Source of the DNA: Octopus vulgaris
Taxonomy: Eukaryota
NCBI GenBank assembly: GCA_951406725.2
Contig: OX597822.1
Location: 22,878,001 to 22,942,000 of the forward strand
Direction of reading: 5' to 3'
DNA length: 64,000 nucleotides
In this document: in pieces, positions 6,401 to 43,573 of the stretch
How positions within the stretch are numbered: position 1 is the stretch's first letter
Layout of the letters: each line of letters opens with the position of its first letter
The notes under the pieces: model-generated
The model's input: the letters and a program-made list of their open reading frames with translations, nothing else
Database searches by the model: none
What the model was told of the DNA's origin: nothing
Program-made: the position numbers and the translations under genes

Positions 6401-6564
6401 AAAAATTCAATGTTAATTGTTTATTACTAGTGGCCAGCGTGAGTAAAATGTCCGTAGACTGCAAATATTTATTATATTATGTGTATAAGAGTCATACACT
6501 GATGGAAAAACCACTTAGTGGTTTTTCATCAGTGTATAACTCTTATACACACATATAAAATACA

Positions 6565-6611
<47 letters not shown>

Positions 6612-7689
6612 ACATATACACACGTGATTGTCAACATATTATATACGCGTAATCGTCATTATACTGTATATATAAGTATATATACACACATAAAATTATG
6701 ACAATATGTACTTTCGCTTTATTATTATGTTGGATGAGTGAAGTATCAGAAATTAGTGTCTTGTAGTATATAGTTACAGTTCTTTATATTCTTGGTTCAA
6801 ATCTAACTGAGGGCAACTTTGTCCTCCATTCTTCCAGATCGATAACAAAAGGCACTGGTCGATTAATGGATCAATTTATATTCTTATTAATCTATCTACC
6901 ATATAAATGGAATTATAATAGAAAATGATTTCAACCACACCAAAGGCAATCCCACATAAATTCGAGGAAACAATTTCTTTTCCAGAATACAGAGCATTGT
7001 TTATAAGCTAATATACGTGGTAGCAAAATGTTTTTAGATTCTTGATTAGAACGAATAGCATACGCAACCACGATATTATGTATGAGACACTCAGTTAAGA
7101 CAGATCGAAGACTTGCTTCACAGGATCGATGTTGCATCAATGAGTCATGATTAAAATGGTCACTATGAAAGTCTACTTTATCATTAATAGAAAGTGAATA
7201 TATATATATATATCGTTTGTCAAAAACATAAATCCGAAAGAAGCGCACTCTAAGATGTAGAACAGTATATATTAGAAATAGCCTCAGGCTGACCAAAAGC
7301 GTGGTGAGTGGATTTGGTGGACGGAAACTAAAAGAAGCCTGCCGTGAATATATATATATATGTGTGCGTGTGTTTGCCCCCCCCCCCAATCGCTTGGCAA
7401 CCGATGCTGGTGTGTTTACGCCCCTGTAACTTAGCTGTTTGGCAAAATACACCGATAACGTAAGTACTAAGGTTACAAAGGATAAGTACTGGGGGTCAAT
7501 TCACACAACTAAAGGCGGTGCTCCAGCATGGCTGGAAGAAGTAAAAGAAAAAAAAGAATATATATATGTATATATATATGTGCGTGAGTCGTCTAAGAGA
7601 CCATATGTCAGGGAAAAGATGCACTCGTATATCTGTCAGTACAGTGGGTATGTATATATATATGTGTGTGTGTGTGTATATATATATAT

Positions 7690-9375: not shown

Positions 9376-12300
9376 ATCATCATCGTTTAGCATCCGCTTT
9401 CCATACTGGCATGGGTTGGACGGTGCAGCTGGGGTCTGGGAAGCCAGAAGGCTGCACCAGGCCCAGTCTGATCTGGCAATGTTTCTACGGCTGGATGCCC
9501 TTCCTAACGCCAACCACTCCATGAGTGTAGTGGGTGCTTTTTACGTGCCACCTGCACAGGTGCCAGACAAGTCTAGCAAACAGCCACGGTCAGATGGTGC
9601 TTTTTATGTGCCACCGGCACGTAGGCCAGGCGAGGCTGGCAACAGCCACGATTGGATGGTGCTTTTTACGTGCCACCGGCACGGAAGCCGGTCAGGGCGG
9701 CACTGGCAACGGCCACGTTTGGATGGTTCTCTTATGTGCCACCAGCACTGAATCACAATGACAATTTCCATTCATGTTGATCGATTTTTGATTTTGTCAT
9801 TTTTTGATTTTCACTTGCCTTAACAGGTCTTCGCAAGTAGGGTTTTGTGTCCCAAGAAGGAAAGGTATGCATAAGTGGACTGAGGCCATGGGTGATGGTC
9901 TCACTTGTCCTGCCGGGTCTTCTCACGCACAGCATACTTCCAAAGTTCTTGGTCTCTAGTCATTTCCTCGGTGAGACCTAAAGTTCGAAGGTCGTGCTTC
10001 ACCACCACATCCCAGGTTTTCCTGGGTCTGCCTCTTCCACAGATTCCCTCAACAGCTAGGGTGTGGCACTTTTTCACACAACTATCTTCATCCATTCTCG
10101 CCACATGGCCATACCAGCGCAAACGTCTCTCTTGCACACCACAACTGATGCTTCTTAGGTCCAGCTTTTCTCTCAAGGTACTTACACTCTGCCGAGTATG
10201 AGTACTGACATTACACATCCATCGGAGCATACTGGCTTCATTTCTTGCGAGCTTACGCATATCCTCAGCAGTCACGGCCCATATAGCATGGCTGTTCGTA
10301 CACAAGCATCATACAGTCTACCTTTTACTCTGAGCGAGAGGCCTTTTGTCCCTAGCAGAGGCAAGAACTCTCTGAACTTTGCCCAAGATATTCTTACTCT
10401 AGCAGTTACACTTTCAACACACCCGCCCCCGCTACTGACTTGGTCACCAAGGTAACGGAAGCTATCAACTATTTCTAGTTTTTCTCCCTGGAAAGTGACG
10501 GAAATTGGTCTCAGAGCATTTTCAGTGTTTATTGCTCCTGAGCATCTGCCACATACAAAAACTATCTTCCTAGTTAGCCTTCCCTTGACGTTGCTGCACC
10601 TCTTGTGTGTCCATAGCTTACACTTGGTGCATCTTATAGAGTTTCTACCTACGCCTTTCCTACAGATCAAGCAAGGCCATCTACCTGAAGGCGTTTGTGA
10701 CTTGTCTACCTTCCTACTTATTAAGGACTTTGGTTTTAGCTAGGTTGACTCTAAGGCCCTTCGATTCTAATCCTTGCTTCCACACCTGAAACTTCTCCTC
10801 CAGTTCTGATAGTGACTCAGCAATTAGAGCAAGGTCATCAGCATAGAGGAGCTCCCAGGGGCATCCTGTCTTGAATTCCTCCGTTATTGCCTGGAGGACT
10901 AGGATAAATAGGAGGGGGCTGAGGGCTGAACCTTGGTGGACCCCTACCTCTACCCGGAATTCTTCACTGTACTTGTAGCCAACCCTCACCTTACTAGCAG
11001 TGTCCCTGTACATGGCTTGCACAGCTCTCACTAACCATTCATCTATCCCTAGTTTCCTCATTGACCACCAGATAAGGGATCAGGGGACCCTGTCGAAAGC
11101 TTTCTCCATGTCAACGAAAGCCAGGTACAGGGGCTTATCTTTGGCTAGATATTTCTCCTGCAGCTTTCTTACCAGGAATATGGCATCAGTGGTGCTTTTC
11201 CCTGGCACGAATCCAAACTGCATCTCATCTAAACTAACTCTCTCTCTAATTAGTTGGGCTATGACCCTCTCCATAACCTTCATTACCTGATCCAACAGCT
11301 TGATACCTCTGTAATTATTTGTATCTAGGGCGTCACCTTTACCTTTGTAGCAGTTGACTATTATGCTGCTACACCAGTCATTGGCTTTGACTCCTTCGTA
11401 TATTACCTGGTTAACTATATGGGTGACTAGGCTATAGCCGACACTACCAGATATTTTGAGCATCTCTGCAGTAATTCCTGATGTGCCTGGGGCTTTCCCT
11501 GTCTTCATGCTTCTAATTGCCTCAATTACCAAGGAACTGTCAACTCGGATAGCTGGTCCCTCTGTTGGGTCGACATTCGGCAGACTCTCTTTATCCCATT
11601 CATTTTCTTCATTCAGCAACCTTTCATAGTGGCGTCTCCACACCTCTCTCTTTGCATCCTTATTTAGCGCAAGTGAACCATCATCCATGCAAACACATTT
11701 CTCTCCTACAACATCAAGATTCTCTCTCACACACTGTCTTGCAACGCAAAATACCTCAAGTCTTTGGTCCTCACAGCGCAGAACATTGGCAAATTTTTTC
11801 TTATCTGCTTCCCCTCTGGCTAAATAAACCTGTCTCCTAGCTTCTCTTTTGGCAGTCTGATACAATTCCCTGCGACCCTCATTTTTCCAGTCCTTCCAAG
11901 CCTGTCTCTTTTCTCTAATAGCCCTGTCTACAACATTGTTCCACCACCACGTTATTCTAGGTCGAGAGGGGGCTTTGCACCAGCCACAGATCTGGTCAGT
12001 GGCTCTCAGCAGGTTGTCCCTTAGAAACGTCCAGTTGTCTTCTATCCCCTTCTACTTTGTCAAAGGCTTCAAGTAATACGTCCCTAAATCTCTGTCCATT
12101 TGCAGGATCTTTAAGCTTCCAGATCCTTCTTCTCCATATTGGTCGTCTTCTGGTCGTCCTCTTAGTCCTGATCCTAAAGTCACTAACTACCAGTCTATGT
12201 TGTGGGGTACATTCTTTGCCTGGGAGGGTTTTGGCATTTATAAGCAGCCATCTTTCCCTTTTCCTGGCAAGGATGTAGTCAATTTGGCTGGTATGTCGAC

Positions 12301-13559
12301 CCGATCGGTAGGTGACTAGGTGGCTGGTAGGTTTCCTGAAGTTAGTGTTGCAAACCATGAGATCATTTGTGTCGCAGAACTCCAGTTGCCTGGTTCCCTC
12401 CTCGTTGCGAGAACCATAGCCATAGCCTCCATGTACACCATGGAAGCCCCCAGCATGTTTTGCAACATGCCCATTGAAATCGCCAGCCACAAAGAGAAGG
12501 TCTCTGTCGTTCGTCAACGAGGTAGTCTGTAGTAAGGCATCATAGAATTGGTCTTTCTGTCCATCGGGTAGCCCTGGCTGAGGGGCATAGGCCGATATAA
12601 TGGTTGCTAATCCATGATGAAGCACTATTCTAATCTTAAGTATTCTGTCACTTACTCTGATTACCTCAAGTACCTTATCTACCAATTTTTCAGCGAGAAG
12701 TAAACCCATGCCTCCAAACCCGTCAGTGTTTCCTGCCCAGAAAATCTTGTACCTGTGTCCTTTGCCTGTGAGGAACCTAGCAGAACCGCCTCTCCACCTT
12801 ACTTCTTGGATGCAACATATATCAACATGTCTCCGTTCAAGCATCTCAACAATCTCACCAGACCTACCTTTCAGTGTGCCTATGTTGAGAGTGCCAACCT
12901 TGAGGGTGTGGAAGGTATGGGCCCTAGAGGCCCTGGGACAGGGAGCAGTGGCGTCATGTACCTGAAAAGAAAGCTCACATTTGGCAGAATTCATAAGCAA
13001 AGCAATGATCTTAAGTTCAACCTGCTACACTACACTATCATGTTTTGCGGCGTATGGTCACTACCTTATATAGTAGGGGTGGTGTTGGCTTAAGGCCTTT
13101 AGGTGTTCATGGAAGAAAAGCAAAGGAAGACAAGATGAGATAAGGACTTCAGGTACAGGTGGAGGGGGTGGGAGGGTGGGCGCCACCGCGCACTATGAAC
13201 GATGGAGTAGGAATTTAAGCGACAGAAAGACTGATAGATGAGGGAGAAAGACAAGATTTGAGACGAAATGCTTTGTGCTCGTGTGAATAAGTTTCTATGA
13301 GTGAAGGCATATGTTGTGGAGAAATGCTTGAGCTAGCATTTGAGACGAAAGACAACGACAATAAGAAAGAGGAAACAATAAGGTTTTATGGTGATAATAC
13401 TCGCAAAAAACAATGAAAGGAGGAACAAGTCGAAATCTTAAAAATATCTTAGCTGCTATTTTTAATCCTGAGGTTCGTGTTTCGTGTGTTACAGCCAGGG
13501 GTATGGAAGTAAGAATAGAAAGGGTCAAGCCGCGTGCATTGGTTTTTATAGGGGAGGGA
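9376..13559 (-). mobile_element. Near full-length RTE-clade LINE, inactivated
   Basis: APE endonuclease (TLNIGTL, CIQEVRW, SAYAPQ, GDFNGHV, QIDYIL; 11996-13000); RT (NYRGIKLL, QFGF.PGKST.DAIF, VDMEKAFD, VHQGSALSP.LF, LYADDL); RTE C-terminus (LRWYGHV.RM, GRGRPRKTW); (GAT)n tail at ~9376; one nonsense codon and three frameshifts; similar ~50-bp TA-rich flanks that may be a TSD. Confidence 0.95.
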
Positions 13560-13969: not shown

Positions 13970-14371
13970 AATTGAGATAGGGGTTGTAAATGCAACCCTC
14001 CATGGGATAACATATATCCAATATATTGCTAGTGAAGTACCCAACAAAGTTAATACATAAATGTTAAGAATTGCGATACAATTAATTCATTTATTGTATT
14101 ATATGGGCAAAGGTAAAATGTTTTACCACAAATTCATAATACAAAATAAGAAAATGGAGAAATACATCGAAATCAAATATCAATTACCAGATAATACTCA
14201 ATCACATACTTTATTAAACCACCACATAAGAAACTATAAGGTTAAACATAATAATGTTGGGTAAAACAGTGTACATGAAGGAGTGTACATAAAATAGTAA
14301 TATTATACAATAAGTAGAATACGTATAATAGAAAATAAATATAAGTACACATAAATATAAATATAGACTAT

Positions 14372-14498
14372 ATCTTACAGCTGTTTCGGCCATGTAGATA
14401 AGCATGTCTCATTTAACTTATATTAGCCATTTATGGTAGGTCAATATGTAGTTATAAATGAGATATTTACAAAAACATCCTAAGGCCTCTTCGGAGAT
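14372..14498 (-). ncRNA. Hammerhead-like motif, inverted copy
   Basis: minus strand: atct CCGAAGA ggcc [92 nt] ggcc GAAA cagctg TA agat. Confidence 0.7.
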
Positions 14499-15164
14499 TA
14501 CAAATTAGATTACATACATACTTATATAGGTGTGGGTACATACCCATAATAAAACATATACATATACATATGAGTGCATATACTCATACTCCTATACATA
14601 ATGATATAAATAATATAAATTAATAAACATACACATGCTCCACATTCAATGTCCCAGTTTTTCAACTTAATGTTGTGATAATTACAATGTAGAAAAACAT
14701 ACACATATTAATACCTAAATGCAGATATAGAGAGTCAAGATTGGTATTGTAATACTATTGTGACTATATTGCTAATAATGGAATTTATGTATTATTTCTC
14801 TAGTATTAGTGTTATTAATAATAATATGAATGATGATATTGGTAGCATTAGTGGTATCGACAAGGATAATGATGCTAACATTAATGACATTTTGGAAATT
14901 AATAAGAACTAATAGAATGTAATCTTGACTCTCTATATCTGCATTTAGGTATTAATATGTGTATGTTTTTCTAGATTGTAATTATCACAACATTAAGTTG
15001 AAAAACTGTAACAGTGAATGTGGAGCATATGTATGTTTATTAATTTATATTATTTATATCAATATGTATAGGAGTATGAGTATATGCACTCATATGTATA
15101 TGTATATGTTTTATTATGGGTATGTACCCACACCTATATAAGTATGTATGTAATCTAATTTGTA

Positions 15165-15291
15165 ATCTCCGAAGAGGCCTTAGGATGTTTTTGTAAATGT
15201 CTCATTTATAACTACATATTGACCTACCATAAATGGCTGATATAAGTTAAATGAGGCATGCTTATCTACATGGCCGAAACAGTTGTAAGAT
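15165..15291 (+). ncRNA. Type I hammerhead ribozyme-like motif (CCGAAGA core, extended stem II)
   Basis: atct CCGAAGA ggcc [92 nt] ggcc GAAA cagttg TA agat. Confidence 0.7.
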
Positions 15292-15619
15292 ATAGTCTAT
15301 ATTTATATTTATGTGTACTTATATTTATTTTCTATTATATGTATTCTACTTATTGTATAAGATTACTATTTTATGTACACTCCTTCATGTACACTGTTTT
15401 ACCCAACATTATTATGTTTAACCTTATAGTTTCTTATGTGGTGGTTTAATAAAGTATGTGATTGAGTATTATCTGGTAATTGATATTTGATTTGGGTGTA
15501 TTTCTCAATTTTCTTATTTTTATATATATATATATGTGTGTGTGTGTGTTTGTGTATGTATGTATATATATATATGTATATATGCATATATATATGTATG
15601 CATATACATATATGTGTGT

Positions 15620-15703
<84 letters not shown>

Positions 15704-17024
15704 TAACAAGGTAGTCGGAATGCTGGATGATTATATATATTTTCATTTACATTTTTAGCACTTTCTTCCATTATGAGATTCATAAAAAAAGTGGTTTACA
15801 GTCAGTTTGCTTTGTCTTTTTATATAAAATCAAAACTGATGATGTTTTAGAAAGGGAGAGAGGGTGGGGAACGAATTAGAAAGGAAGGTGCAGGTGTGAG
15901 GGAGGAGGAGAAAGTGGGAGATAGTGAAGGCAGAGAAGAGAAAAGAAAGTAGAATGAGTGTTTTGTGTGGTTTGTGAAGGAATGGAAAAGAAAGAAAAAA
16001 GTTTGAGAGAAAGGGGAAGGTAAAGGAGGCATGGCTTTTGTATCAGTGTGGACATTGTTGGTTTTTTCCTTTTGGGAGGGGAAGAAACCAAAAACCTTTA
16101 AAGTCACAACTTTGGAACAAGCTTCTGAATCAATGCAAGCATGTTTATTGGAAGAGCATTCATTGCAACAATATAGCTAACACATACCAAAATTGGCGAA
16201 GCAAGGAGAACCCAATCCTCCCCAGGAAATTTCTTATTAAAGAAATAAAAGGTGAAGCACTGGAAGAAACTATGATATATGTGAACATAGCACTATGCTG
16301 TCTGGAAGTAGAAATATCTCTTCTCCAAGCACGAAAAGTATGGCAGGAAAAGAAGGTCCCAACCACTGATACAATCATATTTGCCGAAATCTCTGAAAGA
16401 AATGACAACCAGAATTTAGAAAAGCTGCAACAACTATGGAAACAAGACAATAAACAAGAAGAAGAATGTGGGGAAAAAAACAGGATTGGTTCACTAACTG
16501 TGGAAAAAACTATGGAGAAAAATCCATAATGAAAACAAAACCAGCACAACAAAAAAAAATATATTAAAATCAAAAAATAACACAAACACCGACCCCAGAG
16601 GATTGAAACAAGAATATCGGATCCCCAGACATCCAAAAACATATGCAGAAAATAACTCCAACTTATCTCAAATACAGATTAGAAACCTGTACTCTACGAT
16701 AGCAACCCTTCATACTGTGATTAACAAATACACAGAATATAAAAAAAACAACCATCAACTAAATATTCTAGATGGAGGAACACATGGGAAGAAAGACAAG
16801 CAAAATACAGACAACCATTAACTCATAATACTGAATGACTTAGAGGGATGAACACATAGGAAGAAAGACAAGTGGGAAACTATAATATAAAAATCTTAAT
16901 GAAAACTCAAGAAACCTATGATATACAACCACCATTCCCACATGGCCCAATAAACATAGAAGATTGGAGGAAGACAACTACTATGGAAATATATACAGGC
17001 AACATGAACTGTTCCCTCACCTAC

Positions 17025-18124
17025 AAGGAAACCTGAACCCCAGAAATAGAAATTGGAAACATAACAATACAACTCCTTTTTTTAGGGAGAAAATGCTACA
17101 ACTATGCTCCAAACCCAATACAACAGAAGTTCCTAATGAACCCACAAAACACATAGACCCTAAAATTATAAATTTATCAAATAGAGACCTCAACAAAAAT
17201 GAAATGAGCCCCCTATTAAAAGGTTACAAATTTACTCAACACCCACTCTGAATCTCATAGAGCTAAAAACCAATATTGAGAACTTCAACCATCACCTCCG
17301 CATTATAGAATTCTTTGATAATAAGAAAGTAGAGGTTGAATTAATCATAAAAAAAAATCTCATTCCACTCCTTACAAGGTGGGCGACAAACACCTAGATA
17401 CATATATATAAACAATCTTGAAATACCCTCTCAGTACCTGTAAATGCAAACAGCCTTCGTGAAGGAGAAAAGGAAGCTTTACAAAGACTAAAGAACGACA
17501 ATTTAATCATCCTTAAGGAAGCCGACAAGGGTGGGGTGATAATAATCATTGATACAGACTACAACAAAGGAAACAAAGGAAACCTGAACCCCAGAAATAG
17601 AAATTGGAAACATAACAATACAACTCCTTTTTTTAGGGAGAAAATGCTACAACTATGCTCCAAACCCAATACAACAGAAGTTCCTAATGAACCCACAAAA
17701 CACATAGACCCTAAAATTATAAATTTATCAAATAGAGACCTCAACAAAAATGAAATGAGCCCCCTATTAAAAGGTTACAAATTTACTCAACACCCACTCT
17801 GAATCTCATAGAGCTAAAAACCAATATTGAGAACTTCAACCATCACCTCCGCATTATAGAATTCTTTGATAATAAGAAAGTAGAGGTTGAATTAATCATA
17901 AAAAAAAAATCTCATTCCACTCCTTACAAGGTGGGTGACAAACACCTAGATACATATATATAAACAATCTTGAAATACCCTCTCAGTACCTGTAAATGCA
18001 AACAGCCTTCGTGAAGGAGAAAAGGAAGCTTTACAAAGACTAAAGAACGACAATTTAATCATCCTTAAGGAAGCCGACAAGGGTGGGGTGATAATAATCA
18101 TTGATACAGACTACAACAAAGAAA
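17025..18124 (+). repeat. ~551-bp near-identical tandem duplication inside the PLE RT
   Basis: Identical peptides in ORFs 16964-17251 and 17536-17802 (offset 551). Confidence 0.95.
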
Positions 18125-18723
18125 AAATACTAGAAATTTTAACAGATCAAACATACTATAAAGAAGAATCAAAACACCCAGAAAAAGCAACACTGAATAA
18201 AATCAGAACATTAATTAATGAATACCAGGATTCCTTCACAGACAAAGAAAAAGACTATATATGCAACTCCATAACCAAAGAGAGCACTTACTACAGATTG
18301 CCCAAAATCCACAAAAGTTCTGAGATACAGAGGGCCTAAATGAACAGTGGAGCTACTATGTAAAAATACAAAGACAGACCTCAAAATGAGACCAATAGTT
18401 GCTGGGCCCCAAGCCCCAAACAACAACGTAGTCACGTCTTTAACATACTCCTCAAACCCTTATGCCCATTAATACCCAGCTATATACAGGATGACATGGA
18501 CTTTCTCAAACACATCCCAACTATTGTCCCAGAAGGTACTATACTTGCAAATTTTGACGTCACTAACCTTTATACCAACATACCTCATACCTTGAGCTTG
18601 GAGGCAGTCAAACACTGGGTAGAGAGACACAGAAGATGTATAGATGACTGTTTCAAAACAGACTTCATTACCAAAGCCATTTGTTTAGTACTAGAAGAAA
18701 ACACCTTCAGATTTATTACAAAA

Positions 18724-19294
18724 CTAGCAGTATCGCCCAGCATTGCTCGGGTTTGTAAGGGAAATAACTATATAAGCATTTTTAGAGAGTTATAGCCAAA
18801 AATAGCAAAAAAAAATGCATTAAAAATGGAAAAAAAATTATGGTAAATTTTTTTTTTTAATCGTTGACTCATTGTAGACATTTTCTGTTTTGGTGTCTTC
18901 AATCCATGAAGTCGTTGTTCTAAAAGAACGCTGGTCTCCTTGACAACGCTTTACGACGTTGATTTCTTTACACTCCCTTCCCCACAGCTTCACGAGGGAG
19001 GGAAGAAGGGGAAGAAGCAAACACAGGTGCAGGTGTTTGAGCGTGGACGCCAACTCCGCCGCCATCGACACACAATGCATTTTATGCATTAAAATGGAAT
19101 AAAAAATGATGTTAAATTATTTTTAAAATCGTAGACTCATCGTAGACGCGCGCTAATAGCCAGACGGGCTCGATATTAATCACGACTATAAGATACCCGA
19201 ATTTGGTTAAACTGCACCACAAAATGTGGGAGGAGTTAGGAATCTAAATGGAAGGGGACAGACACTCACACAACTACAGTTTTATATATATAGA
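18724..19294 (-). mobile_element. Non-autonomous Helitron nested in the PLE RT
   Basis: Minus strand starts TC and ends CTAG after a GC-rich hairpin; inserted between A and T with no TSD; flanks rejoin as the RT segment ...ENTFRF/IY.QLKGMAMG. Confidence 0.85.
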
Positions 19295-20008
19295 TATACT
19301 GACAGTTAAAGGGTATGGCTATGGGTACAAAATTTGCACCTTCATATGCCAACTTAGTCATAGGTTACTTAGAAGGTAAACTTTACAAGGAAGTATGAAA
19401 AATCTTTGATCACAACTTCAAGGAAAACATTATGAAGAAGTGGAAACGCTACCTCCATGACTGCTTCATTTTTTAGGATAGACCAAAAGAAGACCTACAA
19501 ACATTTCACAACATCCTCAACATACTGCACCCATCTATCAAATTCCCAACAAAAACCCAGCTACAATGAACTACCATTCCTAGACATTCACATCAAAATA
19601 CAATTTCAATGTTACAACAGGCATATTTTATAAAAAAACGGACACACACCAATATTTAAATTTCTACTCTTGCCACCCCTCACATCAAAAAGAACATCCC
19701 ATGCAGTGTGGCAAGACACATCTGCACCATAGTAATTGACCTACAAATACACCAAATTAGACTTGATGAACTCAAAAACTTCCTACAAGAACAAAATTAC
19801 CCTGTGAAAGTAATAAATAATGAAATCTCAAAAGCGATGAAATTAGACATCACACAACTAAGAACTCTAAAAGAAAAAAAAGCAAGGAACATGCTTTTCC
19901 ATTTATTAATACACACAACCGTGGAGTAACCAATATTTTCCACATTATACAATCAAACCTACTAATACTCTTACAGGGACCCAAAATGAGAAACCTGATA
20001 GATAAATG

Positions 20009-20970
20009 CTACCTACAAAATAGTAAACGCCATGTAACTTGAACCAGAACTTCTTTTTTTGTAAGGCAGACTTCGAACTTGTCTGCATGATTCAGAGCAT
20101 CTGGAGGGCAATATGTAGTACATGTAACTACATTGAGTTGTCTTGTATATACAATTGGTGTGTCACATACTGAATCTGAATGTGACAAAAGGACCTGGGG
20201 TGTAAGGTCTTCATGGATGTACATAGCAACTCCACCATGACTCCTTTCTTTTCTTTCAGTCCTTACTATGACATACTGTGGTATGTGTATTTCTGCATTT
20301 GCTATATCTGGTTTCAGGTGTGTTTCCATAAGTTCTATGCATAAGGCTTGATTGCATGTAACAAGGTCTCTCAGGAAAGGAATTTTTGTCTTGTTATTAA
20401 GTGTTACCAGTCCTCTGATATTCAGTAAGAGCACCGATGTGATGTCTGTGTTGTTTCCAGTGGTATTCACCTTGAGTCCATTTGCTGTGATGGTCTTGTG
20501 TATTGGGGATAGTCCCATCTATGAGATTGATGTAGCTAGGTCAGTTGCTGTACAATCTTTTGTGCCATACACAAAAACGATTGTTGTTCAACAGCTGCCT
20601 GTTCAACAACATGTTGATAGAACTGGTTTGTAGCATGCACTACTTCTGCATATTTCAGTTTTAGGGCAGATAGTACATGATCCTTTCCTTTTGGCAGATG
20701 GTTTCCACCCAGGGTCTTTGGGTGTGCAAAATGGCAGCTTGCACCTCCCTCTCAATGCCAGCAGAAACCTTTCAAGTAGAAATTTAGAATTTACACATGT
20801 GTGCTGTCTATTTTTATCCTTTTTGCTGTTTGGGCAGTCAGACTTGCTTCTTTCTTTGGTTGTTTGGTCTTTTGTTCTTGCACCTTTTGGTTAGTCTTTC
20901 TTGGCACTTTCACCTCCTCGATTTTCCACTTTGATGGTGGTAGAGGCACTTGCACTTGGGTTTTCTTTCC
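20009..20970 (-). mobile_element. 5' fragment of a CR1/L2-group LINE (APE endonuclease and decayed upstream region)
   Basis: LLNIRGL...ETHL...R..R..GGVAMYI...Y.PP endonuclease motifs in ORF 20009-20518. Confidence 0.8.
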
Positions 20971-21464
20971 TGGTATATATATATGCACACACACACACAC
21001 ACACACACAGCATCCAAGTTTGCCAGTTTTATCCAGTGTCAGTGAAAAACCAAAGATGTTAGTTTCTCATTGATGGATATGGGTATAAATTATTAAAATA
21101 ATAGAAAAAGAAAACAGAGAAACTAACATATAGACATCAATTTATTTGAAAATACATTCAATTCTGTACAATATCAAATTCCTTGCTCCTGCAGCTGTTT
21201 CTATGCCCAATTAATTCAATTTTAGGAACTGATAGAAAGAAGCTACATTCCTGTGTAGCTTCTTTCTATCAAATTCTTCCCCTGATGGAATGCCCAATTA
21301 ACAATATTCAAAATGAAAATTTAATTTAATTTCTCAAATTGAATTGGTTGGGCATGGAAATAATTTTGGTGCAATGGGTTTGATATAGTTCAGAATTGAA
21401 TATGTTCTAATAAATTAATGTCTATATATTAAATTTTCCATTTTCTTTTTCTTTTTCTCATATA

Positions 21465-22425
21465 TAATACAAAATAAGAAAATGGAGAAACACATCCAAA
21501 TCAAATATCAACTACCAGATAATACCCAATCACATACTTTATTAAACCACTATATAAGAAACTTTAAGGTCAAACATAATAATATAGAACAAAGCAGTGT
21601 ACATAAAGGAGTAATATGATACAACAAGTACAATATGTATAAGAGAATATAAATATAAATAAATATAAATATAAGTATAAACTATATCTTACAGCTGTTT
21701 CGGCCATGCAGATAAGTATGTCTCATTTTACTTATATTAGCCATGTGTGGTAGGTCAATATGTAGTTATAAATGAGACATTTACAAAAATATCCTAAGGC
21801 CTCTTCGGAGATTATGAAATACAAACCAAATTACATATACACTCATATAAGTGTGGGTACATACCCATAATAAATCATATACATATACATATGAGTGCAT
21901 ATACTCATACTCCTATACATATACATAATAACATAAATAATATAAATCAGTAAACATACATATGTTCCATATTCAATGTTACAGTTTTTCAACTTAATAT
22001 TATGATATTACAATGTAGAAAACATACACATATTAATACCCAAATGCAGATATACAGATTCAAGAGTACATTATATTAATTTACAAAATGTCATTAATGT
22101 TAACATCATTACTATTATCATTACCACTAAAGCTACCAATATTATTATTCCTATTATTAATAACACTAATACTAGCAAAACAATATATAGATCACATTAT
22201 TAGCAATATAATAGCAAAACCAAGGACCACAATAGTACTACAGTACCATGCAAAGCATTAAATATCTGCATATACATACAAAATAAGAAATAAAAGCAAT
22301 CGGTTTACATGGTATTAAGTTCTGCAGGTGTATAGATGTACATACGAGTGCAAATTTATAATTTCAATTGTGACACAGTTGATATTTGATTTGGATGTAT
22401 TTCTCCATTTTCTTATTTTGTATAT
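21465..22425 (-). repeat. Third, more diverged copy of the pseudo-LTR with a short inverted end fragment (22380-22425)
   Basis: Direct match to 14139-14742 plus reverse complement of spacer 14743-14920. Confidence 0.85.
21686..21812 (-). ncRNA. Hammerhead-like motif, third copy
   Basis: Same core and stems conserved despite divergent flanks. Confidence 0.7.
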
Positions 22426-22603
22426 ATTATATATATATATATGCATATTTTAAAATTCTGTATTCATATAGAGTCTGACAAGCTGTCCACAAGGCTGCGA
22501 AACCTTTAGTAACTTTATATAAAATTTTGTTGCAATAATTACTGCTCTATTTTTTAGAGTGTGCTTCTTTCTATGTTTTTTTTATTAACTATATATATAT
22601 CAT

Positions 22604-23760: not shown

Positions 23761-23959
23761 ATGGCGACATCGTACTACTTGTTTGTCATTTTACAACTTT
23801 TAAGTATCTTTTCTGTTCTGTCTAAATATTCTATTAAACTCGAAATGAAAAATGACTGCAACCAAAAGAAAAATACTCACGACCAATATTTTGATATAAC
23901 TCATCTTAAATGTCGTTTCTGTTCCCAAAATAACTCTATACAATCAGTTTCTAATGATG
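23761..23959 (+). CDS. TMEM67: Meckelin/TMEM67 exon 1 (signal peptide and start of cysteine-rich domain)
   Basis: MATSYYLFVILQLLSIFSVLS (signal-like)...QYFDITHLKCRFCSQ...VSND(G) matches the meckelin N-terminal 'QYFDIS.L.C..C' motif. Ends phase 1 at G|GCAAGT (GC donor). Confidence 0.9.
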
Positions 23960-26489
23960 GCAAGTTTATTATTTTTGATTTTTATTTACGTTTTCACTGT
24001 TTTAAAGAAAAAAATAATTGATGCATTTTTGACTGAACATTACCCCCAATTTCTATCAAACGTGTTGTAAATATGTATTTATAGAGATGAAAGTTAAAGT
24101 CGGTCTTAACTGAGTTTGAACTCGGAACAGTCGTGTGTGGAAAGTTTGTCTTAACTTTTATTTCAGGTTTGAGTTTAATTAAAATTAATATTTCACGACC
24201 TCACTTTCAAAAATCACCTGCGTTTCGCTAAAGTTTTTCTATTTAGAAAAAAAAGAAATTTAAATAACTTTTAGTCTTTTGTTTCGCTGTTATGTCTTGT
24301 AAATATTCTTCAATTAGAATTTACGTGACACATACATTTCCCGATGATATTAGCAGCACTTGGTGGAATAACTACAGATGTGCCCTCCCACCGATTTTGT
24401 CGCCTCATAAACTTCCAGAAAAATGGATACTTTTTAACGAAAGTTCCAACAAATAACCGCTTAGATTCTGTAGATTGAGTGTATCGAAAGATTTGTTGCA
24501 AAAAAAAGTTTTCGAGGGTTTGGGGAGTGGAGTTTCGAAAAATTCACGCAACCCGACCTTTTTCCCCTCATAACTTTCAGGAAAATGGGTAATTTTTAAT
24601 GAAATTTTATACAAATACTTTTCAAACGGCATAGATTACTATTATAAAGAAAGTTGTTGACACAATGTTTTGCGAGGTGGAGAGTTTCGAATGAGACGGC
24701 CCACATGTTGGAATTTCTCCGTTTGGTAAAATTTTCGTGTAACACCCGCACGATTACACGAAAATTTTACCCTCCGTTTTAACGGGCAATTTTTACCTTT
24801 TTTTCCACCTGCCTGTTTACGAAAAAAAAAAAAGGTTTGAACATTTATGATTTTTTTTTCAGTCCCGCCACTCGTCAACCACTCTGTAGCCCTGACTGAT
24901 TTTGACCAATTTTTATTTCATTACACGTTTAAAACCCACAAGAGAAACATTTTCAGGCATTCTTTCGATATAACAAATGTATACAAAATCAAAACACTTC
25001 ACTTCGGGTAATTCTGTGAAAGCAAATGACAATTCGATTCTGTTTTCTGCTTGGAAATTTGCCTATTTTACATACACACCTGAAAGAGGTAAGAACAAAT
25101 ATGCAAGGCTTTTTTTCCTTCAAGTTTAAAATGAGACATTGCTGGCATAATTTCGTTATGTCTATACTCCACAACCCAAGGAAATACCCGAAGTGAAATG
25201 TCTTGACCTTGTCGAGCTATATCGAAGGAATGCCTATTTTCAGTTAGAATATGCTTTTCATCTTTTCAGAGGAAAGAGTGTGATTCGGCTGCTGTTTCTA
25301 GCACGTCGCAAGACCACTCTCGTTTTTTTTCTCACTCAAATATACTCTTTACTTTTACTCTTTTACTTGTTTCAGTTATTTGACTGGCCATGCTGGAGCA
25401 CCGCCTTTAGTCGAACAAATCGACCCCAGGACTTATTCTTTGTAAGCCTAGTACTTATTCTATCGGTCTCTTTTTGCCGAACCGCTAAGTTACGGTTAAG
25501 TAAACACACCATCATCGGTTGTCAAGCGATGTTGGGGTGGGGGGGACAAACATATACACACACACACATGCATACATATATACATATACATATATACGAC
25601 GGGCTTCTTTCAGTTTCCGTCTACCAAATCCACTCACAAGGGTTTGGTTGACCCAAGGCTATAGTAGAAGACACTTGCCCAAGGTGCCACGCAGTGGGAC
25701 TGAACCCAGAACCGTGTGGTTCGTAAGCAAGCTACTTACCACACAGCCACTCATACGCCTATGCATTGATGTTTTTCAATATTTTTCTCCATAAACATAT
25801 ATATGCTATGAAAAAAAAGAAAATTTTTTAAATTTATTTTTTGAGTCCCACTCCCTGCCGTCAATTGTTTCTGTTTATTCTAAAATATTGTAGAGCCTGA
25901 GAAGGCTGTTGCTGGGATTTATCCAGAGTGATTTTAAAAAAAGCTATGTAAAAGATGATTTATTTTGATAGCATAATTTTGTTAGAAAATGTTTTTTTTT
26001 CCTTTCGCACACACATACGCAGCCTCGCTCGGTTGGGATGCGAGTAAAAATTTAAATTACTATTCTTTTTCTTTGCTTGTATCTCGGTAATGGACCACGC
26101 GTGTTACTTTGGCATTATCATTCCATAAAATGTGTTTATCAGAAGAAAAGTATTGAAAAGCATCAATAGATGTGAGAAAGAAACGAGAAGAGAGATCTGG
26201 GGATGTGTTAGATACAACAGCCAGATCTTCCTTAAATCATACACTTTTTCCTCTGAAAATATAAAATTTTTTTTCTTTTAACTGCTAGGTTAACCATGTA
26301 TTTTAAGTGCGTAGTGAAAAAAAAAATGGCCAAAATCAGTCCAGTTTGGGGGTGGACAGACACACACACACACATTGTATTTAGTAATGGTCATGTTGCC
26401 AGTTTAGCCAATAAAAACACACGCACTTTATATTTGGTGTTAATTTGCTTCAGCTTTATTTCTTTACATTAATATTAATCTTATTTCGG

Positions 26490-26529
26490 CCAGAGTTCTT
26501 TCGTCACACTTCTGTAACCTCATCAGTGG
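26490..26529 (-). ncRNA. Minimal hammerhead-like motif
   Basis: minus strand: cca CTGATGA g gttaca-gaag-tgtgac GAAA gaac TC tgg. Confidence 0.65.
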
Positions 26530-27695
26530 TCCTTTGCTTTCGTCTTTCTTATTTCTGTGTCTCTCCTTACTAACGGTCAGCCATAGCCATTTTTTCATTG
26601 AAACAATGGCATGGTTTGACAGGAGCAGCACCAGGTTTCATTGTCTGTTTTGGGTTGGTTACTATGACTGGATGACCTTTTTAACACCAACCACTTTACA
26701 GGCTTTTCTGGGTGCTTTTTACATAACACCAGCACCAATGCTTTCTATGTGGAACCAACCTGAGTCCTTTTTATGTGGCACCAGCACCTGCATCCATTCT
26801 GCTGTGGTAGACATTTTGAGTACAGCAAGGTGCCAGATATCTCGGTCCTTAGTCATATCCACATGCACGCATGCACTCACTCGCTCACCAAAGCCTTGTG
26901 GGTGGAAACTGAAAGAAGCCTGTCATGTATATATACGTATATATTTATGTGTCTGTTGTCTCCCTACAATTGCTTGACAACCACTGTTGCATCCCTGTAA
27001 CTTAGTGGTTCAGCTAAAGAAACCCATGGAATAAGTACTAGGCTTACAAAGAGTAAGTCCTGGGGTCATTTTGTTCAACTAAGACCCTTAAAAGGCAGTG
27101 CTCCAGTATGGCTGCAGTCAAATGACTGAAATGAGTAAAAGATTTAAAGAATACTCTATATTTTGTCTATCAAATTCACTCATAAGGCATTGATGGCCTG
27201 GGGCTATGGCAGAGGAAACTTGTCTAAAGTACCATGCAGTGGGACTGAACCTGAAACCACATACTTACAAGGTGAAGCTGGTGTTTCACACACCTGCCTA
27301 ACCCTTTTGTTACCAACCTGGCTGAAACTGGCTCTCACTACAAATGTCTTGTTTTCATAAGTTTTGAATTAAAATCTTACACCAAACCGTAGTCATAATA
27401 TATGTTCCTAACACTAGCTTAATGATGACTAAATTATTTTACTAAATTCTTCATATTTAAAGTAATTGAAAGAAATACTGAGCATCTCAAAATAAATACA
27501 GTAACAAAAGGGTTAATAATGACAGTGATTTTACTAGATTCATTATTTTCAAAATTAATTGAAACAGAGACAGTGTATTTCAACAGAAATATGGTAACAA
27601 AAGGGTTAATTACTTCTTGTTAATTTTTTTCTTTGGTAGTTGTGAAGTATTTTTCACTATGATCTAAAGTTTGTAAACATTTTCTTAATTTGTAG

Positions 27696-27784
27696 GTTTA
27701 TCTTGTGTATGCAATCCAGGATACAAATATACCAAAAACATGGCACCCCGAGCAGTAAATTGTGTAAAATGTGGAGCAAACCAG
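27696..27784 (+). CDS. TMEM67: TMEM67 exon 2
   Basis: tgtag|GT; (G)LSCVCNPGYKYTKNMAPRAVNCVKCGANQ; CAG|gtaagt; phases 1 to 0. Confidence 0.92.
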
Positions 27785-28049
27785 GTAAGTTTGAATGAAT
27801 TGCGACTGGCGAAATCCTTATTACCTTACTGTTTAAAGGACCATAACCCTTTTTATTACAATGCATCAGTTTTTTGTTTCAGGTGTGGGTATGTGGTAAG
27901 AAGCTTGCTTCCCAACCACATGGTTCCAAGTTTAGTTCCACTGCATGGCTACCTTGAGCAGGGGTCTTATTCTATAGCATTGGGCTAACTGAAGCCTTGT
28001 GAGTGGTTTGATAGATGGAAACTGAGAGAAACTGATGTGTGTGTGTATA

Positions 28050-28581
28050 AATATACTTTATTTAAAGCAGCAGAAAATTCAATAAAACCTGTTACTCTGA
28101 GTTTCACGTTCCAGTTCGTTGGACAGTTTTTGCTAGAATAGAACCTATATGTCAATTCTATCCAGACTAGTATAAACGCTACACCTTTAAAAATGGACTT
28201 GTTTGATTGGTCCTTTACAAATAACGGTCAATTTTCGAGCGATAAACAAAAATGATCTCAAAAAAGAAAAAAAATATATATATATATATATATAAAATTC
28301 GAGGAAAAAACCTTACAGCAAATTCCTCGAATTTTATAATTTTTTATATATATATATATATTTATATTTTTGAGCTCATTTTTGTTTATCGCTTGAAAAT
28401 TGACCATTATTTGTAAAGAACCAATCAAACAAGTCCATTTTTAAAGGTGTAGCGTTTATACTAGTCTGAATAGAATTGACATATCGGTTCTATTCTAGCA
28501 AAAACTGTCCGACGAATGGGAACGTGAAACTCAGTGTAACAGGTTTTGTTGAATTTTCTGCTGCTTTAAATAAAGCATATT
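28050..28581. repeat. ~530-bp near-perfect palindrome (fold-back, 16-nt loop 28307-28322)
   Basis: Arms are reverse complements over ~255 bp, each with a hammerhead-like motif. Confidence 0.95.
28506..28541 (+). ncRNA. Minimal hammerhead-like motif (CCGACGA core); mutated mirror copy at 28090-28125 (-)
   Basis: tgt CCGACGA atg-ggaa-cgt GAAA ctcagtg TA aca; the other arm has ctcagag in stem III but CCAACGA in the core. Confidence 0.65.
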
Positions 28582-28737
28582 ACCCTACCACTGGTATTTG
28601 AGTACTCTTTTTTTCCACCTTGTTTACTCCGGTAAATATATATATAATTAGATAATAAGGGTAGAAACTGATATTAATCAATTAAAACCAATGGCTTAGC
28701 ATATTTAAAAAATCTGAAGATTAAAAATTGTGTTACA

Positions 28738-29153
28738 TAGGTGCAGGTGTAGCTGTGTGGTAAGTAGCTTGTTTACCAACCACATGGTTCCGGGTTCAGT
28801 CCCACTGCGTGGCACCTTGGGCAAGTGTCTTCTAATATAGCCTCGGGCCGACCAAAGCCTTGTGAGTGGATTTGGTAGACGGAAACTGAAAAAAGCCCGT
28901 CGTATATATATATATATATGTATATATGTGCGTGTGTGTGTTTGTGTGTCTGTGTTTGTCCCTCTAACATTGCTTGACAACCGATGCTGGTGTGTTTATG
29001 TCCCCGTTACTTAGCGGTTCGGCAAAAGAGACCGATAGAATAAGTACTGGGCTTACAAAAGAATAAGTCCCGGGGTCAAGTTGCTCGATTAAAGGCGGTG
29101 CTCCAGCATGGCCGCAGTCAAATGACTGAAACACGTAAAAGAGTAAAGAGAGT
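28738..29153 (+). mobile_element. SINE family B, full length; other copies ~25345-25782 (-), ~40005-40385 (-), ~47636-47992 (-), ~53362-53772 (+)
   Basis: tRNA-like head (tggctgtgtggt...ggttcagtccc), internal (TA)n(TG)n, 3' ggtgctccagcatggccgcagtc...gtaaaagag tail. Confidence 0.88.
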
Positions 29154-30022
29154 ATACAAAATTAAGAGGAATGACCACTAAAGTGGACACCTAATGACGT
29201 CAAATCGCCATTATCATGAAGAATGTGTTCTCAAGAAAAATTTCAGCAAAATGCCAACATGTAAAAATGAGTAAGACAAATGAAACTATACAAAATAAAA
29301 AACAATTACCTACGTACCGATGGTTTCACTTGTTAATGTCTATGTATGCAAACATGCAGATATCTGCAAGATCGTCAGCGTAGTCTGTCTCTTACAAAAC
29401 ACACAATTTCCAGAACTAGATACAGAATGCTCAACTGAAATCGAGTATGTATAAAGTTCTACAAATTATATTTGGGTGTATTTTTCAAATGTCTTCACTT
29501 TGGCATGCTGAGGCTGGCAATTACTCTGCAGTTAATAAATTTCAGTAGCCAATTTACCGGTTAGAGAACATTTTTTATTTAAAATTAATTAATAAGGGTA
29601 GAAATTGATATTAATCAATTAAAACCAGTGGCTTAGCATATTAAAAAAAGTCCGAAGATTAAAGATTGTGTTACATACAAAATTAAGAGGAATGACCACT
29701 AATGTGGACACCTAATATGCTGGTGGCACATGAAAAGCACCATCCAAATGTGGTCAATGCCAGTGCCCCCTGACTGTCTCCCATGCTAGTGGCACATAAA
29801 AAACACCCAGTACACTCTCAGAGTGGTTGGTGTTAGGAAGGGCATTCAGCTGTTGAAACCATACCAGATCAGATTGGAGCCTGGTGCAGCCTCAGTTAAA
29901 CTGTCCAGCCTATGCCATCATAGAAAGCAGCCATTAAACGATGATGATGATGATATATGATGTTGGATGCAATATATATTGACCATCTGAAAGACTTAGT
30001 CTTTTTCTTGTATTCTTTACAG

Positions 30023-30119
30023 GTCACTTCAGAAGATGGTTGGAGTTGTATCTACTGTCACAACGATACTTTGTCAAGCAACAATAAATGTGCATCGTGT
30101 ATAGGCAAGAATATAACAG
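30023..30119 (+). CDS. TMEM67: TMEM67 exon 3
   Basis: tttacag|; VTSEDGWSCIYCHNDTLSSNNKCASCIGKNIT (cf. meckelin 'TEDGWNCISC'); G|gtaaaa; phases 0 to 1. Confidence 0.92.
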
Positions 30120-36274: not shown

Positions 36275-37433
36275 ATATACTAGGTGACCAAGTCAGCAGC
36301 GGGGGCGGGTGTGCTGAAAGTGTAACTGCTAGAGTAAGAATAGCTTGGGCAAAGTTCAGAGAGCTCTTACCTCTGCTGGTGACAAAAGGCCTCTCGCACA
36401 GAGTGAAAGGCAGACTATGATGCGTGTGTACGAACAGCCATGCTACATGGCAGTGAAACATGGGCCGTGACTGCTGAGGATATGCGTAAGCTCGCAAGAA
36501 ATGAAGCCAGTATGCTCCGATGGATGTGTAATGTCAGTACTCATACTCGGCAGAGTGTAAGTACCTTGAGAGAAAAGCTGGACCTAAGAAGCATCAGTTG
36601 TGGTGTGCAAGAGAGACGTTTGCGCTGGTATGGTCATGTGGCGAGAATGGATGAAGATAGTTGTGTGAAAAAGTGCCACACCCTAGCGGTTGAGGGAACC
36701 TGTGGAAGAGGCAGACCCAGGAAAACCTGGGACGAGGTGGTGAAGCACGACCTTCGAACTTTAGGTCTCACTGAGGAAATGACTAGAGACCGAGTCCTCT
36801 GGAAGTGTGCTGTGCGCGAGAAGACCTGGCAGGACAAGTGAGTCCATAACCCGTGGCCTTCTACATGGGATGGAGCCAGCCTACGTATGCATACCTTCCC
36901 TTCTTGGGACACAAAACTCTACTTGTGAAGACCTGTTGAGGCAAGTGAGGATCAGAATCGAAATCGATCAATGGAAATTGCAGATGTGTTACCAGTGCCG
37001 GTGGCATGTCAAAACTCTACTTGTGAAGACCCGTTGAGGCAAGTGAGGATCAGAATGGAAATCGATCAATGGAAATTGCAGATGTGTTACCAGTGCCGGT
37101 GGCATGTAAGAGAACCTTCCGTTTCGCGACCGTTGCCAGCACCGCCCCGTTTCGTGTCCGTTGCCAGCCTTGCCTGGCCCTCGTGCCGGTGGCACATAAA
37201 AAGCACCATCCGTTCGTGGCCGTTTGCCAGCTCTGTCTGGCACCTGTGCGGGTGGCACGTAAAAAGCACCCACTACACTCACGGAGTGGTTGGCGTTAGG
37301 AAGGGCATCCAGCCGTAGAAACACTGCCAGATTTGACTGGGCCTGATGAAGCCTTCTGGCTTCACAGACCCCAGTAGAACCGTCCAACCCATGCTAGCAT
37401 GGAAAACGGACGCTAAACGATGATGATGATGAT
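36275..37433 (+). mobile_element. 5'-truncated copy of the same RTE LINE family (TMEM67 intron 5)
   Basis: MLHGSETWAVTAEDMRKLARNEASMLRW...GRGRPRKTW is nearly identical to 9901-10450; same 3' UTR and (GAT)n tail. Confidence 0.95.
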
Positions 37434-42500: not shown

Positions 42501-43573
42501 AAAGTTCAAGAAAAGCACGTTCAAGTGACTGGAAGTGGGGACAGAAAAAGTGGGGTCTTTTTAAGGCAAGAAGTGTGATAATGGTGTGTGTGTGTATGTG
42601 TGCATGTGGTAGTATCTGAGTGCATGTGTGTTTGTGTTTATGTGGTACTGCAGACAGTTTAGCAGCAGTAGTTATGTAGTTGTGATTTTGTTATGAGTTC
42701 TTGAGAATCAAGGCACATGGACTTGTAGGATGCCAGAAATGGCAAGGTATGATAACATAGAGCTCATATTGAAATAAACAACTTGGAATACGTCAAATGT
42801 TGGTAGGATACTATAGACAGGCGAAGTGATGTTAACACTTTGGGTATGCATCATTACTCCAAGTGAAACGATGAGAGGTTCTGATGAAGGATTTATTTAA
42901 ACAGTCACCTGAGGAGGCACATTTTACATTTTGGATGTATGATAATGATTGCACATCACCTCACCAATCTACTAAATGTGTAAAAATGTGTTGAAACAAT
43001 TGTAGTGATTTTAAGTAAAGAATGTCGCTCATACCATCTATCATTTATCCAGTTGTATAAATTGTATGGAAATTGTGAAATTCTTGATATATATCCAGTA
43101 GCAGGAATATTTCTACTGTATGATGACATCAGGTAGCCAATAACTATGGATGAGCTTTGCATAGCATACTACATACTTATTTAACTGTATATGTATATAT
43201 ACACACACACATTCTTTTATTCTTTTACTTGTTTCAGTCATTTGCCTGCAGTCATGCTGGAGCACCACCTTGAGTGGTTTTAGCCGATCAAATCGACCCC
43301 AGGACTTACTTTTTAAGCCAACACACCAACACTGGTTGTGAAGCAGTGACGGGTGGGACAAACAGACACAAATACACATATATAGATATATACATATATA
43401 TATGTTGGGCTTTTTCCAGTTTCCATCTATCAAATTCTCTCACGAGGCTTTGGTCAACCTGAAGCTACAGTAGAAGACACTTGCCCAAGGTGCCACTCAG
43501 TAGGACTGAACTCAGAACCATGTGGTCTGAAAGCAAGCTTCTTACCATTCAGCCACACCTGCGCATATGTACG

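Follow-up and report, generated by a model that had tools for sequence, protein, structure and literature searches.

A hammerhead-like motif with C at core position 4 is a family trait of a palindromic, putatively Penelope-like repeat in octopus TMEM67

Intron 2 of the octopus TMEM67 gene contains a palindrome that carries a type I hammerhead-like motif with C, in place of the canonical U, at core position 4 (U4C). We found that this C is a family trait: it was the majority letter among contigs of the same repeat family in all four public sequencing runs that we aligned. The palindrome lies in a 64,000-nucleotide stretch of genomic DNA, referred to below as the window. We consider it quite probable that the locus is what remains of a 5'-truncated insertion, now decayed, from a high-copy Penelope-like family with a C4 type I hammerhead, whose motif, by prediction, is here locked in a hairpin and does not cut. 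The locus is thus an ordinary retroelement scar, and the interest lies in the family, where a repeat amplified to high copy in several related genomes has, as its majority letter, a change usually held to be near-inactivating. The U4C change was already known from a viroid, and palindromes are what Penelope-type insertion ordinarily leaves behind. The novelty lies in finding such a core as the majority form of a high-copy animal repeat, and in an editing-like signal at the cleavage site that is weak but specific. In the literature that we searched, no animal Penelope family was described as having a U4C core, although that search was not exhaustive and does not establish absence from print.

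The palindrome and its hammerhead-like motif

The two arms of the palindrome form an inverted repeat (28050-28297 and 28334-28581), are 248 nt each and are 91% complementary. With the central TA run excluded, left and right arms mismatched at 12 of 211 positions. The host is a plus-strand gene in which the exons at 23761-23959, 27696-27784 and 30023-30119 joined in frame, and Pfam Meckelin matches were obtained for two downstream plus-strand exons (E values of 2.9e-10 and 1.9e-17; two of the eight segments scanned). The palindrome occupies the stretch 266-797 nt 3' of coding exon 2. These measurements confirmed the initial annotation, which had described a 530-bp palindrome in TMEM67 intron 2, about 270-800 nt after exon 2 and with one copy sense to the gene. 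The extent that it gave, 28050..28581, was right for the palindrome but not for the element, which runs on to about 28632, and the annotation did not recognise a Penelope-type insertion unit with a tail. As a separate observation, TMEM67 coding intron 1 (23960-27695) has an apparent GC donor, not GT, and the in-frame joining of the exons uses this GC. The features of the locus were as follows.

27696-27784, plus strand: TMEM67 coding exon 2 (intron 2 is 27785-30022; exon 3 starts at 30023)
28048..28055, no strand: left copy of a candidate 8-bp target-site duplication, TAAATATA, overlapping the end of the inverted arm
28050..28313, minus strand: left arm with the inner hairpin arm, an inverted copy of the 3' part of the element that has no tail
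28089..28126, minus strand: decayed left-arm hammerhead, with core CCAACGA (G5A), one helix II change and helix III intact
28314..28329, no strand: unpaired fold-back loop of 16 nt in the MFE structure
28330..28581, plus strand: right arm, a direct copy of the 3' part of the element in the same orientation as TMEM67, with family contigs from 28378 onward
28505..28542, plus strand: type I hammerhead layout with U4C, in the right arm
28505-28508 with 28539-28542, plus strand: helix I
28509-28515, plus strand: core CCGACGA
28510, plus strand: core position 4, C (canonically U), the majority letter of the aligned family contigs
28516-28518 with 28523-28525, plus strand: helix II, 3 bp
28526-28529, plus strand: GAAA
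28530-28536, plus strand: helix III, short, palindromic in the family
28537 and 28538, plus strand: U16.1 and A17, with triplet GUA and the cut predicted after 28538
28581..28632, plus strand: one-sided 3' tail of about 52 nt (~67 in other copies), absent from the left arm
28633..28640, no strand: right copy of the candidate duplication, the same 8-mer TAAATATA, in TA-rich DNA

The right arm and the family majority had all of the conserved hammerhead letters C3, G5, A6, G8, A9, G12, A13, A14, A15.1-U16.1 and H17, and each of the three helices paired in the family majority. The palindromic helix III and loop 3 (CTC-W-GAG) were present in the family majority and in the left arm. The U at core position 4 was missing, with C in both arms, and we therefore classed the motif as a hammerhead-like variant and not as a canonical member. 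The right arm of this copy has two private changes, at 28517 and 28535, which leave a U-G pair in helix II and a U-U in helix III. Together with G5A and the helix II change of the left arm, these mean that the consensus quoted in the initial annotation is absent from either arm alone; it is a composite of both, and outside copies were needed to test it.

Searched with a type I descriptor limited to a short helix II, the window yielded a single CCGANGA site, as against zero in 100 dinucleotide shuffles. When a long helix II was also allowed, four CCGANGA sites were found in the window, as against a shuffle mean of 0.03. The Rfam hammerhead models gave no match to the motif among the 89 matches at E up to 1 or the three at E up to 10, and the window's two canonical-core hammerhead motifs were likewise unmatched by Rfam at E up to 1. 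Matches to Rfam microRNA models were rejected as TA/TG microsatellites that fell below the gathering score. Directly 5' of helix I lies a pyrimidine-rich run ending in AG (28488-28498), which could be a cryptic acceptor; in Drosophila virilis Penelope an intron is reported to end at helix I (PMC4209133).

The RNA of 28046-28640 was predicted to fold with 255 base pairs at -363.3 kcal/mol (z -41.9), and none of 100 shuffles folded equally well. The centre of the fold-back is a smaller inner hairpin, with the 16-nt loop listed above. Positions 28505-28543 showed a mean pairing with the left arm of 0.94, and the hammerhead's own helices had negligible probability in the predicted fold. The claim that a stem of about 255 bp would sequester the motif is thus supported by modelling. 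In the TMEM67 pre-mRNA the left arm would be transcribed first and would pair with the right arm as it appears. Because the right-arm motif is paired away in this fold and the motif on the other strand has G5A, the locus is predicted not to cleave, with the hairpin as the probable block. The right-arm motif folded in isolation reached only -1.1 kcal/mol as a hammerhead, compared with -6.4 kcal/mol for its MFE structure; we gave this little weight, because isolated motifs that do not fold as hammerheads are expected for the dimer type.

Core position 4 in the family and in the window

Public runs were used to read the family's letters. The arm was partly present in 20 of 24 runs listed, and four runs under three organism labels were aligned to 28300-28660 at 80% likeness, with readings from 28378 onward. 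These runs, named X1, X3, X5 and X9, contributed 5560, 2846, 1390 and 293 contigs, respectively. X9 is a putative RNA run, and the other three are non-RNA runs. Run depth was summed over contigs and is no measure of copy number, and the numbers of contigs per variant had a ceiling of 128.

C was the majority letter at 28510 in all four runs, with T accounting for 3.9% of depth in X1, 19.8% in X3, 20.9% in X5 and 18.8% in X9. This majority ruled out C4 as a private mutation of the TMEM67 copy. A family consensus of CTGA, with the C specific to this copy, had been named beforehand as the result that would speak against the claim, and T was instead confined to 3.9-20.9% of depth in every run. The private changes of the right arm were also resolved, for the family majority had C at 28517 (92-94%) and A at 28535 (over 99.7%). 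These letters restore helix II and the palindromic helix III, so that the two-arm consensus, tgt CCGACGA acg-ggaa-cgt GAAA ctc-a-gag TA aca, is correct and agrees with the family majority in the aligned contigs. Contigs obtained in this way are biased to the reference: depth at 28510 was 30, 45, 34 and 80% of that at 28533 in X1, X3, X5 and X9, which sets the guaranteed non-T floor at 29, 36, 27 and 65%, respectively, and a more diverged CTGA subfamily could have been under-sampled.

We also compared the pattern of conservation with the shape of a hammerhead. In the non-RNA runs an alternative letter stayed below 5% at C3, G5, A6, G8, A9, G12-A15.1, U16.1 and A17. Six of the 39 sites varied, namely N7, one loop II base, the loop III centre, the base beside helix I, position 4 and position 11.1. 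Four of these six are positions that a hammerhead leaves free and a fifth is the C4/U4 site (hypergeometric test, post hoc, P = 0.006-0.018); the count omits the private sites of this copy, and including 28517 (6-8% non-C) weakens the test. Contrary to hammerhead-shaped conservation, 28525 (helix II, position 11.1) varied, with 10-15% G.

The minority letter at position 4 has a pattern of its own. C>T changes at 28510 and 28513 were found without a matching G>A row at 28511 or 28514, and for this reason T4 in X3, X5 and X9 looks like a replicated subfamily with the canonical U4, and not like CpG decay. An origin of T4 purely from CpG decay is unlikely for these three runs and possible for X1 (3.9%). 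A family with a C4 majority and U4 minority subfamilies would offer a natural test of whether Penelope hammerheads must cut in order to spread. Exact-pattern scans of metagenome contigs, viral contigs and prokaryote genomes returned 0 loci.

A descriptor search of the window found six hammerhead-shaped sites in four families, and C4 occurred in two of the four. Besides the right-arm motif, the sites were these.

15169, plus strand: CCGAAGA hammerhead layout of the 15165 family, with a 100-nt helix II insert
14494, minus strand: CCGAAGA layout of the same family, with the same insert
21808, minus strand: CCGAAGA layout of the same family, with the same insert
22659, plus strand: minimal hammerhead with canonical CTGACGA and an extra nucleotide after A9
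42909, plus strand: canonical CTGAGGA core in a hammerhead layout whose helix II has a 77-nt insert and whose helix III is palindromic

In the 15165 family, CCGAAGA was found in three of three copies, which stem from at most two insertions; two of them are the arms of one 1.38-kb palindrome (14143-15520, 91.8%), and the third copy lies at 21460-22210. BLAST of the TMEM67 palindrome against the 15165 element gave no match at E 0.01 (the best, against 14143-22450, had E 0.049), so that, as had been proposed, no significant similarity connects the two. The initial annotation went on to call U4C recurrent in this lineage. The sample is two C4 families of four in one window, the second of them known from two insertions at most, and U4C may thus be recurrent. 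The site at 42909 shares the architecture of the 15165 family but has U4, and BLAST found no significant similarity between them. Published descriptors such as 'cuganga' (PMC8557442) are blind to C4 cores, and counts of animal hammerheads may consequently be low. Separately, a decayed palindrome (67%) lies at 21100-21455, in which the descriptor found no hammerhead.

Termini, insertion and identity of the element

The aligned contigs revealed two recurrent termini. One end, flanked by (AT)n, recurred at 28580 in 36, 37, 15 and 9 contigs of X1, X3, X5 and X9, respectively, and coincides with the end of the left arm. The other lies past 28625, where loose ends occurred in 84, 58, 42 and 8 contigs (four of four runs), and other copies have 15 extra letters after 28625, followed by (TA)n. 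Since the locus has the short end on its left and the long end on its right, we took 28581-28632 to be a tail present on one side only. In the three non-RNA runs, summed depth climbed from about 4,500-7,200 at 28378-28403 to 0.2-2.5 million near 28547-28598. This gradient and the loose ends point to frequent 5' truncation with fixed 3' ends, and subfamily divergence 5' of 28501 contributes to the pattern. The left copy of the candidate target-site duplication sits in a (GT)n/(TA)n run that terminates a SINE-like repeat, and an empty site was not seen. A further loose end was seen in X9 before 28501, where a six-contig consensus starts as the 5' part of the hammerhead in reverse complement; this is a weak hint of shorter palindromic copies with another centre.

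At the locus, a direct copy and an adjacent inverted, 5'-truncated copy stand head to head. Insertion units of endonuclease-positive Penelope-like elements (PMC3846280; PMC8557442; PMC11167929) have the same arrangement and a one-sided tail, and are also alike in their AT-rich or microsatellite target and a hammerhead 5' of the tail; the candidate 8-bp duplication would correspond to their short duplication. Reported units have a 30-40 bp tail at one end, duplications of 8-10 bp and microsatellite targets (PMC3846280, PMC8557442), and the tail has been described as the stretch between two RT start sites (PMC11167929). Unlike those units, the locus is a stub without an ORF, its tail exceeds 30-40 bp, and a coding master was not found. 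No RT/GIY-YIG frame of the palindrome family was seen, the arm having no long frame and no similarity to the RT-like region of the window. Given the longer tail and the absence of such a frame, we infer Penelope membership from structure. Five short motifs of the element, searched as exact words for Naiad_Obim and Naiad_Ovul, had 0 matches in the supplement of PMC8557442, a text in which line breaks can hide words.

The RT-like region just mentioned, at 16498-19929 on the plus strand, consists of broken RT-like frames with a DKG motif and had no Pfam match above the cut-off. Its Atlas neighbours were unnamed eukaryote clusters, one of them with RVT_1 in 15% of members. It is likely a Penelope element with a C-terminal endonuclease.

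If the palindrome arose by Penelope-type insertion, the element's RT/endonuclease would have nicked a (TA)n run, and cDNA would have started at two internal RNA sites, yielding a long, tailed right end and a short left end. Only about 320 nt would have been copied, with fold-back synthesis building the inverted arm, and each arm would since have decayed by about 3%.

Other identities would explain parts of these data. Long terminal inverted arms, a TA-rich target and the lack of coding capacity would suit a fold-back MITE or another TA-targeting DNA transposon, with the hammerhead-like motif present in its inverted repeats by chance. Such an element should have a fixed interior, whereas the inner arm was 10- to over 100-fold rarer than the end and many contigs diverged 5' of 28501; it would also leave unexplained the unequal ends, the tail on one side only and the hammerhead-shaped conservation, and we consider it very improbable. 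Only marginally more credible is a retrozyme of the non-autonomous, non-LTR kind (type I hammerhead repeats in tandem, giving rise to circular RNA) that was caught as an inverted dimer. Retrozymes are known in molluscs (PMC7229834), the type I motif with its short palindromic helix III would fit, and one X1 contig joins 28612 to 28501 and may be a tandem unit. That joint was listed in just one of 5560 X1 contigs, however, and the locus is inverted and has no head-to-tail tandem repeats of 150-450 bp, while the two fixed termini, the tail and the 5' gradient also argue against a retrozyme. We attach least credence to a hairpin or ribozyme co-opted for regulating the splicing or turnover of TMEM67. 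Its position 266 nt past exon 2, its sense orientation and the predicted 255-bp duplex would be in keeping with such a role, but the arms have diverged at the 12 positions noted above, hammerhead positions among them, the motif's own helices have negligible probability in the modelled context, and among the listed contigs of the four runs none spans the stretch. A 5'-truncated insertion of a Penelope-like family thus remains our preferred reading of the locus.

Cleavage and the editing-like signal

The type I hammerheads of metazoan Penelope elements (Cervera and de la Pena 2014, PMC4209133) share with the octopus motif their topology, a short helix I, a palindromic helix III suited to dimers, high copy number and sequence subfamilies. 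The octopus motif differs in having C4 for U4, no extra nucleotide after A9, A-U in place of G10.1-C11.1 and a helix II of 3 bp. The cores in the rows of Fig. S3 of PMC4209133 compared here are all CUGA or UUGA, and the descriptor used there was built on the conserved core. Metazoan Penelope hammerheads act weakly and as dimers (PMC4209133), and the motif of an active master, with C4 and a palindromic helix III, probably folded likewise as a slow, dimeric or protein-assisted ribozyme. We judge the chances for and against any cleavage by the master's C4 motif to be roughly equal.

The same core change occurs in a natural viroid hammerhead (Ambros and Flores 1998, cited in PMC3088659). That case concerns one variant of an RNA replicon, and the present one a high-copy genomic repeat of an animal in which C is the majority letter. 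Unlike the viroid hammerhead, the octopus motif is minimal and lacks evident tertiary contacts. A rival account concerns the activity step only. It holds that C4 is crippling and spread by hitch-hiking, that cleavage is unneeded for insertion and that the motif is a dead relic throughout the family; we regard it as a serious contender that falls somewhat short of even. Catalytic mutants of the anole Penelope hammerhead left in vitro insertion unaffected, and that study reports no RNA-seq reads ending at the anole cut site (PMC11167929). Activity in vitro is considerably reduced by U4C (Ambros and Flores 1998, as cited in PMC3088659), and Naiads proliferate without canonical hammerheads (PMC8557442). 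Against a relic, the remaining core letters are fixed while the free positions vary, and the viroid U4C variant stayed infectious (PMC3088659). Moreover, the CpG that C4 creates should decay to T, yet C is the majority letter here and is found in all three copies of the unrelated 15165 family. The initial annotation had suggested that U4C is a tolerated variant; tolerated need not amount to catalytically active here and may simply stand for dispensable.

Changes of the A-to-I type were found in the putative RNA run at the predicted cleavage site. X9 had 14.7% T>C at 28537 (13 contigs), 9.8% A>G at 28538 (18 contigs) and 7.8% A>G at 28539 (13 contigs), and the changes at these positions in X1, X3 and X5 were 0-0.66%. 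Only these three of the 27 variant rows reached at least 5% in X9 with less than 1% in the other three runs. The positions concerned are U16.1, A17 and the base after it. Each change is A-to-I in kind, with both strands represented, the pattern expected of a fold-back transcript. Further UA steps in the stretch had no such variant row. The signal comes from one putative RNA run with no matched DNA and refers to the family, not to the locus; at that level it suggests A-to-I editing. The proposal that the double-stranded stem is an editing substrate is accordingly backed for the family, by the RNA-only A>G and T>C changes in X9. For the locus, the long duplex of the TMEM67 pre-mRNA would be a likely ADAR substrate.

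Hyper-editing of self-folding palindromic repeats has been described, with lizard Penelope elements heavily edited and a very high hyper-editing signal in octopus (Porath et al. 2017, PMC5625713). The tight, self-folded dsRNA is the same in those repeats and here; the difference is that the present signal lies on a hammerhead cleavage triplet and comes from one run. For an engineered hammerhead, a roughly 30-fold drop in rate has been measured with inosine at position 17 (PMC3923133), and minimal hammerheads are impaired by G17 (PMC3884650). An editing-like signal on the cleavage triplet is thus a lead on host control. A broader conjecture, which we think rather unlikely, is that two unrelated Penelope-type families independently keep a slow-cleaving U4C core, acting as a dimer or with protein, against CpG decay, and that ADAR edits the A at the cleavage site and so damps cleavage. 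If it were true, CUGANGA descriptors would miss a whole class, and some "hammerhead-less" Penelope families may have C4 cores.

Repeats of other kinds were also observed in the window. To the right of the insertion, 28639-28739 and 29576-29677 form a 100-bp direct repeat (90%) of another family, and 29154-29195 recurs at 29675-29716. On the minus strand, 9896-13024 contains LINE-like frames with endonuclease and RT motifs, and their 3' part recurs near 36407-36841.
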